Made by a program: the position numbers and the translations under genes
DNA from: Gammaproteobacteria bacterium
GTDB lineage: Bacteria; Pseudomonadota; Gammaproteobacteria; GCA-001735895
NCBI GenBank assembly: GCA_050288105.1
Contig: JBNKDE010000013.1
Span: forward strand, 3,519 to 67,518
Reading direction: 5' to 3'
DNA: 64,000 nt
Shown here: one piece after another, positions 18,740 through 20,882 of the stretch
How the letters are laid out: each line of letters opens with the position of its first letter
Position numbering within the stretch: the stretch's first letter is position 1
Notes under the pieces: generated by a model
Told to the model about the DNA's origin: nothing
The model's input: the letters and a program-made list of their open reading frames with translations, nothing else
The model's database searches: none

Positions 18740-18922
18740 TTACCGCTTATCGATAGAAACATACTCCCGGTTTTCCGGCCCGGTGTAGTTGGCGGAGGGT
18801 CGTATAATCTTGCCATCTTCACGCTGTTCGATCACATGCGCGCCCCAGCCGGAAACACGTGAGATAACAAACAAAGGGGTGAACATGTCAGTCGGTACGC
18901 CCATCTGGTTGTAGGAAAACAC
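18740..18922 (-). pseudogene. 3'-terminal remnant (last 60 codons) of a second 2-methylcitrate synthase gene (prpC')
   Basis: Its translation is identical to the C-terminal 60 aa of PrpC at 20883-22037. Nucleotide identity is about 91%, with every difference synonymous. There is no upstream gene body. Confidence 0.8.
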
Positions 18923-19192
18923 TTCTTTGCCTACCGATACTTTTCTATAAACCTCAGACTGTATATTTTCACGAAATTCGGGTTAGACGCTATTGATCCC
19001 TCCTAGCAGCCCCTACCCCAGGATCTTTTTGGGAGGGATCTTTTGGGGACACTCTGATTTTTTTCGATCCAAACTCCTTTTCCATAACTGAATTTCACTT
19101 AATATTTTTAGCCCCCCGTTCTCAGCATTGATATACGGAAGCATTTCGGATACTCTTCTGTTCTTCTAACTTCTACCAACAGGGACTGTACG

Positions 19193-20362
19193 GTGAAAAA
19201 AATCCTCCTCGCGCTAGCTCTCTTTCTATCGTTAAATTCTTTTTCGCATGCCAGAACTACCAACGCGATCTGGAGTCATGCAGAGAAGCGTATCGAACGG
19301 GAAGGTGAATTACTGATGTCGCTTCCGGATTACGACGTGCATTCTCTGGACGTAAAAAAGCAGGGAGATATGTTAATCTGCAATTCATATACCGCAGAGC
19401 ACTTCTTTCCACCAAGTTATGGCCAATCGATTCCCGCTAATGGCAAACAGATTGTCAGGCTATCCTTTCTACATAAGATTGGCGATCCAGATCAGGACAT
19501 CGTGCCAACGAGGCTATTCACAAAATCTAATAATGGCTCCGGGCCTAAGTTTCGAATGACAACAGATGAGTATGCTGAACAGGTTGGCATGGAGGTTCTT
19601 GATGCGATACATGCAGCCTGTCCTGATGTAAACTTTTTCATGGTAAACAATTTTTTCGCTGACCTGTTTATATACAATGGTTCAATCGATTTCAGATCCA
19701 GGCCCTGGTTTATCCCGGATCACGAAAACCCGATCATAAGAACTGACTTCAGTCTTGAGGAAGGGGTATGGCGCGCGTCACGTGAGCTTCCCTGGTCCGT
19801 GAAAAGGATCGATGAGCATCTCAACAAAGGCAATTGGACAAGTCGTAAAAAACTTCAATATGCAGTTTGGGATCAAAATCAAGATAAGTATCCGAGAAAG
19901 AAGGCGAAGATTGTGCAGCGCGCTGGACCGCCTGTGGCCGAAGAGATTACCTCGGCATATATCAGAGAAATGTCCGATTTTGGTTTCCATAAAGGCAGGT
20001 GGAACGAGCTGATTCCAAATCAGGGACCGGGGCATGCGACGGTTGACGAGGTACAGGTTACTCATTGTGCCAAGGAAGGTGAGGGTTATCGTTGCCAATA
20101 TATAATGAAGATGACGATACATATGGCCGCATTAGCCAGTATTCTAAAGGATATTGTGAAAGTTCCCGACAAGCGCACTAAGACACAGGATGAGAGCCAC
20201 TTATTTGTATCTACCTCGCAGGGTTGGCGCTCTCCGAGCCTACATGAAGACCGGAAACTCAAAGAGCTGGAGCGCAATCGGCGTATGAACGAAAACGTGA
20301 AACGCTCCGTTGAAGAAGCCAACCAAAAGGCCATGGAAGACGTGCTCGACCTGCTGTTGTAG
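19193..20362 (+). CDS. Hypothetical secreted protein (orphan), GTG start
   Basis: 389 aa with a signal peptide (MKKILLALALFLSLNSFSHA) and a charged, coiled-coil-like C-terminus. I recognise no domain. Confidence 0.55.
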   Translation: MKKILLALALFLSLNSFSHARTTNAIWSHAEKRIEREGELLMSLPDYDVHSLDVKKQGDMLICNSYTAEHFFPPSYGQSIPANGKQIVRLSFLHKIGDPDQDIVPTRLFTKSNNGSGPKFRMTTDEYAEQVGMEVLDAIHAACPDVNFFMVNNFFADLFIYNGSIDFRSRPWFIPDHENPIIRTDFSLEEGVWRASRELPWSVKRIDEHLNKGNWTSRKKLQYAVWDQNQDKYPRKKAKIVQRAGPPVAEEITSAYIREMSDFGFHKGRWNELIPNQGPGHATVDEVQVTHCAKEGEGYRCQYIMKMTIHMAALASILKDIVKVPDKRTKTQDESHLFVSTSQGWRSPSLHEDRKLKELERNRRMNENVKRSVEEANQKAMEDVLDLLL

Positions 20363-20466
20363 ATCTTCAACACACCCTACTGGAACAAAAAATTGTAATG
20401 TCAGATACAGGTTAAATTAAATAGCTGGAAATTTAATTTATACCTGATCACTGAACCCTCGCAGTC

Positions 20467-20745
20467 TTGGCGGCGCTGGACAAAATCGGTTGTCCTTGGC
20501 GTATTGTGCTTTCTACCCTCAGTCTTGTAGGAATAAGGGCTGGAGTGCGAGCCAGATTGGGTATTTGCGTAAGAAGCGAAAGATGGCAGGAAGATAATCT
20601 GTGTATTGTAGACCAGGGTCTGCCAGCGTTACCTGATGTTAAACTGGCGATCCTGTCGGGCACGAACACAGAAGAAAAGGTAGTCGAGAGATTAAGAACA
20701 GCCTTACGCGGTGCGCTAAGTCAGTCAAGTAGAAATGAATATTAA
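20467..20745 (+). pseudogene. C-terminal remnant of a LysR-family regulator gene (LysR')
   Basis: About 75% aa identity to the C-terminal ~90 residues of the LysR protein at 9876-10739. The N-terminal part is absent. Confidence 0.7.
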
Positions 20746-20873
20746 CCACAGAGCGCACAGAGCGCACAGAGTGCACGGAGTGGGATATTAAAATTTAAGG
20801 GCTTGATAGGAAAGAAGCACACAAAGGACTCAAAGAAAACGTTTTTCTCTGTGTCCTCTGTGTGCTCGGTGGT
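20743..20873. repeat. Heptamer-TIR repeat R6
   Basis: Left ttaaccacagagcgcacagagcgcacagagtgcacggag, right ctctgtgtcctctgtgtgctcggtggtt. Confidence 0.8.
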
Positions 20874-20882
20874 TAGACAAAC

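Follow-up and report, generated by a model that had tools for sequence, protein, structure and literature searches.

Displacement of the 3′ end of a gene by incoming DNA, through homology-facilitated illegitimate recombination (HFIR), has been proposed for T6SS effector-immunity arrays, Rhs and CDI loci, and displaced 3′ ends left by this mechanism have precedent in the same work (PMC5361080; PMC3240628). On HFIR and displacement, PMC5361080 cites de Vries & Wackernagel 2002 as well as Jackson et al. 2009. Clusters of attC sites lacking an integrase are known as CALINs (PMC4889954).

Here we describe a strain-specific insert of 2.2 kb (18677-20877) at the 3′ end of prpC, within a 64,000-nucleotide stretch of gammaproteobacterial contig JBNKDE010000013.1 (assembly GCA_050288105.1) that we call the window. 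We judge the host, by PrpC similarity, to be an uncultured bacterium related to Candidatus Thiodiazotropha. Several features recall HFIR and 3′-end displacement: a conserved upstream anchor, here the prp genes, is followed by new DNA; what appears to be an older 3′ gene end has moved downstream without a change of orientation, its natural downstream flank kept; one joint (J2) is sharp and non-homologous; and the addition is absent in conspecific strains. Unlike the described cases, the displaced end encodes the same amino acids, with nothing functional exchanged, the toxin-immunity logic of T6SS, Rhs and CDI displacement is inapplicable, and the outer boundaries lie in MITE termini.

The insert likewise shares with Campbell integration at the 3′ ends of tRNA or protein genes a 3′-end direct repeat flanking the insert, an intact gene and relatives with an empty site. 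It differs in having no integrase or other recombinase, in its size of only 2.2 kb, in repeats that are 91% identical throughout and hold no clear crossover-marking identity core, and in a cargo that includes a fragment of another chromosomal gene. The elements at its boundaries resemble MITEs with TA-flanked terminal inverted repeats, perhaps of the IS630/Tc1 type: they are multicopy, ORF-free elements of 55-140 bp whose ends form inverted repeats of 25-29 nt, usually with TA at their flanks, but their arms carry heptad repeats (CACAGAG) and a nested 50-bp piece recurs in them. Finally, the locus is reminiscent of a sedentary chromosomal integron or CALIN, with intI and attC beside prpC at the same locus in sister lineages and attC-bearing cassettes in the window that vary between strains, whereas attC is absent from the 2.2-kb block, which stands apart from the cassette array. 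We take the block for a commonplace scar left by DNA exchange at a genomic hot spot rather than for an element of a new kind.

Results

Comparison of the locus across relatives, which the initial annotation had proposed, revealed that the region at 18.7-20.9 kb is present or absent between conspecific strains. Two conspecific assemblies (L003 and L004), whose PrpC protein is identical to that of the window, are without 18677-20877, so the block is an insertion polymorphism. In these empty sites, prpC passes directly into the MITE cluster which, in the window, comes after a second prpC tail, the remnant prpC′. All sister lineages have prpC, spacer, D1 MITE and MITE cluster D contiguous, with no block, so the insert-free state is ancestral and the block was acquired, as had been claimed. 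A second assembly, GCA_050287525.1, carries the same arrangement at 99.78% identity; the arrangement is therefore not an assembly artefact. Homology is continuous on one side, where window positions 20878-32037 are colinear with L003 at 97.85%. Intact full-length second copies of prpC and LysR were found in none of the relatives. The converse reading, with L003 as the deletion product of a window-like ancestor, was rejected: the 50-bp piece is missing from L003, whose spacer is longer by 13 bases, and the simple arrangement is shared by every outgroup.

Two abrupt joints lie inside the insert, J2 at 18916/18917 and J1 at about 20448-20457, and its outer ends fall in MITE termini. The terminus TA-ACCAC stands at both outer boundaries, with TCTAACCAC common on the left. 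The only intact ORF encodes a 389-aa secreted protein, and the insert holds no recombinase. Its 1.5-kb core had no match in plasmids or phages, and the window had none in Rfam.

The intact prpC gene, encoding 2-methylcitrate synthase (20883-22037, minus strand; Pfam Citrate_synt, 3.6e-123), is 97.4% identical to that of L003 in its body and 97.2% in its tail. Its 3′ end (20883-21059) recurs as prpC′ (18740-18916, minus strand), which comprises the last 58 codons and a TAA stop and is 88-91% identical to every sampled lineage. The two copies form a direct repeat of 176-177 nt, 2.1 kb apart, that flanks the insert. Between 18741-18916 and 20884-21059, 161 of 176 bases are identical (91%) without gaps, and all 15 coding differences are synonymous; the stop is TAA in the remnant and TAG in the intact gene. 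Nei-Gojobori counts give S=40.8, N=133.2, dS=0.505 and dN=0, and the chance that 15 random changes would all be synonymous is ~0.234^15, roughly 3e-10. The ~91% DNA identity and purely synonymous divergence reported in the initial annotation are thus confirmed, as is the functional source that it proposed: with dS of 0.5 and dN of 0, the tail diverged under purifying selection and so comes from a once-functional allele or xenolog. Of the annotated "last 60 aa of PrpC", only 58 are homologous, and these are identical in protein sequence; ORF 18740-18922 opens with two codons that lie beyond 18916/18917. It is here, at J2 (18915-18918), that prpC homology ends abruptly between 18916 and 18917, before codon Ser327 and inside the reading frame.

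Differences between the tail copies run from nucleotide 27 to the stop, the first 26 nt being identical, and the two tails therefore do not look like reciprocal hybrids. The 176 bp of 91% homology contain identity blocks of 20-26 nt. The remnant has final codons and a spacer like those of L093; conspecific L003 is matched by the tail and spacer of the intact gene, and L003, L004 and the nearest lineage, L092, all have tail and spacer of another type than the remnant. The two types read TAA-ATAAA and TAG-GTTTG. Remnant, spacer, D1 and D follow one another in the same order as behind the intact prpC of L093 and L098. With the 50-bp piece included, remnant-spacer-D1 is a natural arrangement, found also behind the intact prpC of L098.

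Only three patches separate the window from L001, one of which holds 34 differences in 199 bp, and by this comparison the population exchanges short, very divergent DNA patches. Gene conversion between remnant and intact tail was considered for the four tail sites at which the window and L001 differ, and was rejected: a remnant-specific base between these sites was not transferred.

The second remnant, LysR′ (20458-20745, plus strand; ORF 20467-20745), comprises the C-terminal ~95 codons, in the effector-binding domain. LysR homology begins at about 20458 (AVLAALD), just behind an in-frame TGA (20452-20454) within joint J1 (20448-20457). With prpC′ on the minus strand and LysR′ on the plus strand, both remnants point outward, just as they had been described. 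Compared with the full-length LysR of the window (9876-10739, plus strand), 63 of 88 amino acids are identical (72%, E=9e-42; DNA about 70-73%), which agrees with the annotated LysR C-terminus and corrects its figure of ~75%; identity is 72-74% whether the window LysR or its L099 ortholog is used. The pair has a dS of 1.7 (saturated), a dN of 0.20 and a dN/dS of about 0.12, so that the two remnants are of unequal age. The full-length LysR, 10 kb away, is the conserved far flank of the variable locus, with 99.3% amino-acid identity to L003 and 91% to L099, where LysR also faces prpC. A metagenome scan with the LysR′ tail found no relative, and a protein word-index search with the same tail gave no match, in a search insensitive enough to miss the existing 72% paralog.

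Adjoining prpC′ is the mini-MITE D1 (18628-18733, minus strand), with its nested 50-bp piece at 18677-18726, followed by the native MITE/REP cluster D (18198-18627, minus strand), which normally lies behind prpC and extends to the G|TT cassette boundary 18197/18198. D1 occupies the same position behind the intact prpC in every lineage aligned. The stretch 18197-18676, which includes cluster D, is 95.8% identical to L003 11184-11663, there 23 bp past the prpC stop, and the cluster D block is orthologous in L093, L095, L098 and L156. Further copies of the 50-bp piece are found in the sister lineage L098 and at 10792-10840 and 38894-38940 of the window. At the opposite end of the insert, MITE-A (20745-20873; z = -4.5) separates the LysR′ stop from the prpC stop; it has 29-nt terminal inverted repeats and TA at 20743-20744 and 20874-20875. 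Its removal leaves GAATAT-TAG-ACAAAC-CTA, that is, the LysR′ stop, 6 nt and the prpC stop. By eye, the prpC-proximal arm of MITE-A resembles the MITE behind prpC of L099. The LysR-MITE-prpC joint looks like the "empty" form of the locus, since LysR and prpC are its two convergent flanks. The CACAGAG repeats were also considered as attC sites and rejected: they have long, near-perfect inverted ends, are scattered window-wide and are unlike the true attC of L095.

The site is a genomic hot spot for DNA exchange. Its variable locus is bounded by LysR-tautomerase-GST on one side and by prpCBE-rraA-aceK on the other; in L099, prpC is followed by two unrelated genes and then by LysR-PNPOx-tautomerase-GST. 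The view of LysR and prpC as convergent flanks of one variable locus is thus borne out in the window and in L099. In L095/96/97 and L156, intI is convergent with prpC and is accompanied by attC cassettes in a classical array. The window and L003 carry different cassettes, each starting at G|TT, and the window keeps strain-specific attC-bearing cassettes 0.5 kb from the block without any intI of its own (best tblastn E = 0.44). Our own attC scan, calibrated on the L095 array, detected none in the insert 18677-20877 apart from MITE-A. The block itself has the prpC stop on one side and cluster D on the other and is not placed at the cassette boundary 18197/18198.

Between the two joints lies the gene for the 389-aa protein (19193-20362, plus strand). 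Its GC content by codon position is coding-like (GC1 0.53, GC2 0.37, GC3 0.50), and its N-terminus, MKKILLALALFLSLNSFSHA, reads by eye as a putative Sec signal peptide. The protein had no match in Pfam, PHROGs, NCBIfam or PADLOC and no relative in IMG/VR; rare relatives do exist, some of them in Candidatus Thiodiazotropha MAGs. Among the relatives are P0133, 97% identical and encoded on a 2.5-kb contig, and P0131, 44% identical and encoded on six contigs. What had been annotated as an orphan secreted protein is thus a real ORF with a putative signal peptide and, judging from these relatives, a member of a small family, not a strict orphan. Structure prediction, also suggested at the outset, yielded an AF2 model in which a C-terminal domain of about residues 240-350 is confidently modelled (pLDDT 75-94) and followed by a long helix; a single-sequence AF2 model reached a pLDDT of 37 and was useless. 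The best Foldseek matches of this domain in the PDB, the ARC6 intermembrane-space domain and NTF2-like proteins, were weak (E = 0.015-0.3, none <=0.001). Ahead of the gene is a unique non-coding leader (18917-19192, plus strand) with an inverted repeat, GATCCCTCC...GGAGGGATC, at about 19004-19049 and no other copy in the window or any fetched locus, and behind it an AT-rich hairpin (20401-20447; DNA fold -9.5 kcal/mol, z = -5.4) abuts J1. The secreted protein is the only plausible functional cargo, the remnants themselves being functionless.

No donor arrangement was found, as LysR′ stands next to prpC in no sampled genome, and no prpC tail among the sampled genomes is more than 91% identical to the remnant. 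In a PrpC search of genome contigs, the relatives among the matches listed were at most 84% identical, and none had LysR′ or the 389-aa gene near prpC. A metagenome scan with a degenerate DNA pattern encoding a 21-residue stretch returned 47 contigs, with a best tail identity to the remnant of 87% and no LysR nearby. One candidate, P0002, a 556-aa "PrpC" with an internal duplication, was set aside; it has many differences from the window PrpC and is not from this clade. The single donor with a LysR-R-prpC junction proposed in the initial annotation is unlikely, given the saturated dS and 72% amino-acid identity of LysR′ against the dS of 0.5 and 100% identity of prpC′. Remnants that differ so greatly in age argue that the insert is a mosaic.

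Discussion

From these features we infer a mechanism, a direction (which tail was resident) and a number of steps. The account that we consider somewhat likelier than all others combined is recombination anchored on prpC or a MITE, together with illegitimate joining, which brought in mosaic DNA and duplicated the 3′ end of prpC. One part of the mosaic would be the end of a deeply diverged LysR with a MITE separating it from the prpC stop, the look of the locus in a lineage with nothing between both flanks. Another would be the secreted-protein gene, from a small family present also in Candidatus Thiodiazotropha MAGs, and a third the second prpC 3′ end, from a source as distant as a sister species. 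Incoming related DNA may have found a homologous anchor at one end, which would be the prp genes, at the 26-nt identity block that starts the tail repeat, or the D1 MITE, and been joined illegitimately at the other end, which would duplicate the prpC tail. In the variant that we slightly favour, the incoming DNA would have brought the present 3′ end of the intact gene, MITE-A, LysR′ and the secreted-protein gene, and the old resident tail would have been displaced downstream with its natural D1 flank still attached. The logic would be that of 3′-end displacement, via HFIR or via Campbell integration of a circle. Against this account, no sampled genome shows a donor arrangement. With the remnant as the old resident tail, the allele once resident must have been atypical for the species, as L003, L004 and L092 have the other type; if the remnant came with the insert, the exchange point is the 5-9 bases of TA-ACCAC, too short for ordinary RecA recombination. 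Any model needs at least one further junction at a MITE terminus, because the divergence of LysR′ far exceeds that of the native-type prpC end beside it.

The initial annotation had named Campbell-type integration as one possibility, and the direct repeats and the empty site do agree with it, whereas the block contains neither a recombinase nor an attC; a one-ended linear event of the HFIR type would explain the structure equally well. A more specific form of the idea holds that a circle with one donor junction (LysR′ end, MITE, prpC′ end) and the secreted-protein gene entered by a single reciprocal exchange, which would make the remnant foreign and the intact prpC native. Reclosing 18677-20877 as a circle does bring together the prpC′ tail, spacer, TA-ACCAC, MITE-A and the LysR′ end, a plausible convergent gene pair; the spacer types, with the intact side matching L003 and the remnant side L093, and the L099-like arm of MITE-A fit as well. 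Against this, a Campbell crossover could fall only in the first 26 identical bases of the tail or in the 5-9-base TA-ACCAC terminus, and this form confines the exchange to the latter despite 176 bp of 91% homology being available. LysR′ and prpC′, so unequal in divergence, are also unlike neighbours in one genome, and no recombinase is present. On balance we find this single-exchange circle possible but unlikely. The idea that the remnants arose by local tandem duplication of the LysR-prpC region, then deletion and decay, is barely credible. It would account for prpC tails as direct repeats 2.1 kb apart and for a second LysR-like piece, but the full LysR is 10 kb away, not adjacent, and neither the conspecific strains nor any sister lineage has the block. 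The prpC copies, moreover, have a dS of 0.5 with no amino-acid change, and the saturated LysR pair a dN/dS of about 0.12, a pattern of divergence as functional genes in separate lineages and not of decay.

A transposase that moves ACCAC...GTGGT MITEs might have cut a MITE at its end and placed neighbouring DNA at the terminus of D1. The outermost bases of a MITE terminal repeat (TA-ACCAC) do mark both outer boundaries, and the 50-bp piece recurs at the same position in several MITE copies. The coincidence would also be expected had recombination simply used MITE homology; the termini that bound the block are directly oriented rather than forming an inverted pair, the surroundings of the block showed no transposase gene, and we regard such capture as improbable. 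ACCAC immediately precedes both the 2.2-kb block and the recurrent 50-bp piece. The outer end of the ACCAC MITE beside prpC might even be a reusable docking site that captures circular or linear DNA and shuttles a fast-evolving, possibly host-interacting secreted-protein family between strains of the Thiodiazotropha-related clade, a proposal that we hold to be a shade less probable still. Insertion of the block by IntI, as a gene cassette or cassette-like circle at a secondary site beside a former intI position, is very improbable. In sister lineages an intact IntI does run convergent with prpC, accompanied by a classical attC array, attC-bearing strain-specific cassettes lie 0.5 kb off in the window, and IntI is reported to insert cassettes outside att sites (bioRxiv 10.1101/2022.09.11.507474). 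Yet MITE-A is the only attC-like site in 18677-20877, the GTT and AAC boxes of the hairpin (20401-20447) are wrongly ordered, the block is on the prpC side of cluster D and away from the cassette boundary, no intI is left in the window, and gene fragments are not normal cassette content.

Recombination with illegitimate joining, our preferred account, calls for no new mechanism, and the value of the locus is descriptive, for the population genomics of the clade and for a candidate secreted protein. The locus also flags a hot spot that holds an integron in sister lineages and an integrase-less cassette remnant in this species, and here an abundant MITE family marks recombination boundaries. The block offers a clean, datable case in which gene fragments and a lineage-specific secreted-protein gene were added beside a core metabolic operon. 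The purely synonymous divergence of the tail shows that the remnant was only recently cut from a working gene, and that this locus receives DNA even from such distant sources as sister species.

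An insertion polymorphism beside prpC

An exact-protein look-up returned an identical PrpC from three NCBI assemblies, GCA_050287525.1, GCA_050295535.1 and GCA_050295135.1, and the presence/absence comparison over 18.7-20.9 kb that the initial annotation had proposed separates them. GCA_050287525.1 (loci L001/L002) has the same arrangement as the window, at 99.78% identity across 21 kb. GCA_050295535.1 (L003) and GCA_050295135.1 (L004) match the window colinearly to either side (97.85% identity on the prp side, 95.8% on the opposite side) and are without 18677-20877, the block that holds a second prpC 3′ end (prpC′), a gene for a 389-aa protein, a LysR remnant (LysR′) and a MITE-like element (MITE-A). 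In both, the prpC stop is followed by 23 bp and then by repeat cluster D, equivalent to window 18676-18197 at 95.8% identity. Sister lineages were scored only where DNA beyond the prpC stop could be aligned (L092, L093, L095, L098 and L156), and all of them run prpC, short spacer, mini-MITE D1, D. On these alignments, the block is an insertion polymorphism, and because every aligned sister lineage has the same simple order, the block-less state is ancestral.

Only 46 positions in 21 kb separate the window from GCA_050287525.1, and they are confined to three short clusters: 12005-12203 (34 differences in 199 bp), 13374-13476 plus 14199 (7+1), and 20925-20967 (4). Each cluster is a short recombination patch of high divergence, and one sits within the intact prpC tail.

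Two gene remnants flank the 389-aa gene

The ORF listing and direct reading place a short ORF at 18740-18922 (minus strand) and intact prpC at 20883-22037 (minus), followed on that strand by prpB, a propionyl-CoA-synthetase-like gene, rraA and aceK. By BLAST and a repeat finder, 18741-18916 aligns without gaps to 20884-21059, with 161 of 176 positions identical. Codon by codon, prpC′ (18740-18916) is homologous to prpC over 58 codons and the stop, rather than the 60 residues initially given, and the homology ends suddenly at 18916/18917, ahead of codon Ser327, defining joint J2. The reported ~91% DNA identity and purely synonymous divergence held: all 15 coding differences are synonymous (the stops are TAA in prpC′ and TAG in prpC), with dS = 0.505 and dN = 0 (Nei-Gojobori; S = 40.8, N = 133.2). 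The probability that 15 random changes would all be synonymous is ~3e-10.

Across the sampled lineages, tail identity to prpC′ spans 88-91% (window intact copy, 91.0%; L003 and L092, 89.8% each; L093, 88.1%), and these distances equal those of the lineages from each other. The last codons and spacer of prpC′, GATAAGCGGTAAATAAATAAACCAC, belong to the L093 type; the other type, GACAAGCGATAGGTT..., is common to intact prpC, L003 and L092. The 58-aa sequence is unchanged only in the window species and a single 98% lineage, and other close lineages carry 1 to 4 residue changes in the tail. In an independent assembly (L088, Logan SRR36185847), the contig stops at prpC codon 355, inside the repeated tail, just where a 26-nt block common to both tail copies ends; such a stop would be expected if the sample holds both copies or mixed strains.

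The second remnant, LysR′, includes a 92-aa ORF at 20467-20745 (plus strand; same listing and reading). Its resemblance to the LysR at 9876-10739 is confirmed (E = 9e-42), at 72% identity over the last 88 residues instead of the ~75% first stated, with dS = 1.7 (saturated) and dN = 0.20. Homology starts at ~20458, just past an in-frame TGA, which puts joint J1 at ~20448-20457, immediately abutted by a strong AT-rich hairpin (20401-20447). LysR′ is only 72-74% identical to the window LysR and to that of sister lineage L099, whereas those two share 91% identity; GC3 is 0.41 in LysR′ and 0.50 in the window LysR. The remnants are thus of very different depth and probably come from different sources.

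MITE-like elements mark the boundaries

MITE-like elements ending ACCAC(A/C)GAGnnCACnGAG, usually flanked by TA, are abundant in the genome. Window copies lie at 3925-4004, 7440-7580, 10846-10968, 15257-15380, 18408-18577, 20745-20873, 38970-39163 and about 53208, and their inverted ends are made of CACAGAG-type heptads. MITE-A (20745-20873) has 29-nt arms and lies between TA dinucleotides, one of which overlaps the LysR′ stop; with MITE-A taken out, the order is LysR′ stop, 6 nt, prpC stop. On the other side, 8 nt of spacer separate prpC′ from D1 (18628-18733), which contains a 50-bp nested piece (18677-18726) that recurs downstream of intact prpC in L098 and within two further MITE copies of the window. 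This piece, GAATTAGGGCA...GCAGTTGCC, stands directly after ACCAC at 10792-10840, 18677-18726 and 38894-38940.

In comparison with L003, the common TCTAACCAC forms the block's left boundary and the right one falls somewhere within D1; J1 and J2 are the only clearly illegitimate joints. We found no attC within the block and no recombinase encoded in it, and its core had no match among plasmids, phages or IMG/VR. A second window repeat family of ~260 bp (78-85% identity, intergenic, GC-rich hairpins) occurs at 2324-2525 (minus), 8459-8716, 50123-50384 and, in part, 8180-8284, and has no Rfam match.

The insert carries a putative secreted-protein gene

The 389-aa ORF (19193-20362, plus strand; ORF listing and direct reading) begins with what by eye is a textbook signal peptide. 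Its codon-position GC pattern is coding-like, its codon usage is near that of host genes, and it is a real gene. A word-index search matched the protein to itself alone, and Pfam, PHROGs, NCBIfam, PADLOC and PDB sequences gave nothing or insignificant matches only. Exhaustive phmmer against 1.84 billion representatives uncovered eight relatives. Drawn from phmmer matches and cluster membership, they include P0133, a 97% identical ortholog from a different sample; P0131, a homolog of the same length (389 aa), colinear and 44% identical; and proteins of 391-406 aa, among them P0125 and P0127, both from Candidatus Thiodiazotropha MAGs. In P0123, a JGI metagenome protein, a secreted cyclophilin-type prolyl isomerase is fused ahead of the family's conserved C-terminal domain. 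P0124, a 1524-aa repeat protein matched over a short stretch, was not counted. The protein, previously called an orphan, thus has relatives, and belongs to a small family of secreted proteins that evolves fast. AlphaFold, given the eight-sequence alignment, modelled residues 240-350 at pLDDT 75-94 as a predicted helix packed on a curved sheet, then a long helix; Foldseek matches in the PDB, to NTF2-like and ARC6 domains, are weak (E = 0.015 or worse).

prpC and LysR border a variable region

In L099 (PrpC 93% identical), prpC is followed by two unrelated genes and then LysR-PNPOx-tautomerase-GST. In the window, 10 kb holding creBCD, dinB, a beta-lactamase-family gene and three small ORFs separates LysR-tautomerase-GST from prpC. 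An integrase of 335-347 aa is convergent with prpC in L095, L096, L097 and L156; the translated L095 integrase has the IntI-specific segment, and L093 retains a truncated copy of this type. Small ORFs come after the integrase in L095-L097, set apart in L095 by classical attC sites (RYYYAAC...GTTRRRY). The stretches bearing on this chromosomal integron are 16579-18420 in the window, 11324-20051 in L095, 7989-9032 in L156 and 11640-12368 in L093. The three small window ORFs (17862-18197; 17399-17764, DUF4279; 16836-17219), between D and the beta-lactamase-family gene, share one strand directed away from prpC, and a good attC-like hairpin (17771-17839) follows one of them. L003 has three different ORFs in their place, with homology breaking exactly at G|TT (window 18197/18198). 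Together, the L099 order, the sister-lineage integrons and the window/L003 ORF differences indicate that LysR and prpC are conserved convergent flanks of a variable region, occupied by an integron in sister lineages. No intI was found in the window; the window species has lost intI from the prpC-side integron. G+C is 34-49% over creD, dinB, the cassettes and the block (13000-20800), against 52-58% in the prp genes, and the stretch between the flanks looks compositionally distinct as a whole.

Origin of the insert

Had one crossover within the repeat produced both tails reciprocally, each copy should depart from the native type in one part only. This is not what is seen: in prpC′ the differences extend from nucleotide 27 through the stop, and the intact tail is native-like along its whole length. 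Two readings are left. We slightly favour prpC′ as the old resident tail, with incoming DNA having brought the present prpC 3′ end, MITE-A, LysR′ and the secreted-protein gene. The exchange would then have fallen in the 26 identical bases that open the repeat or, had the fragment been linear, at a point upstream of them. Such a course offers homologous exchange a sufficiently long stretch and preserves both natural contiguities, tail-MITE-A-LysR′ and remnant-D1-D. It needs the resident allele to have been an atypical patch. Such patches are common here, the window and L001 differing only by three short clusters, one with 34 differences in 199 bp. Under the circle model of the initial annotation, which we favour slightly less, prpC′ arrived with the block and the exchange took place in the 5-9-base TA-ACCAC terminus.

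Both readings can be placed in established classes: either Campbell-type integration, or homology-facilitated illegitimate recombination that displaces a 3′ end, a mechanism already put forward for T6SS, Rhs and CDI arrays (PMC5361080; PMC3240628). Because LysR′ is much older than the adjoining prpC end, either reading calls for one or more additional junctions at the MITE terminus and thus for a history of several steps. The anticipated donor with prpC beside LysR appeared in neither of two metagenome scans nor in any fetched locus. Apart from two values (58 not 60 aa, 72% not 75%), the initial description of the locus was correct. What the block represents is a recombination scar of an ordinary sort, located at a hot spot; it introduces no novel type of system but is informative for the population genomics of its clade.
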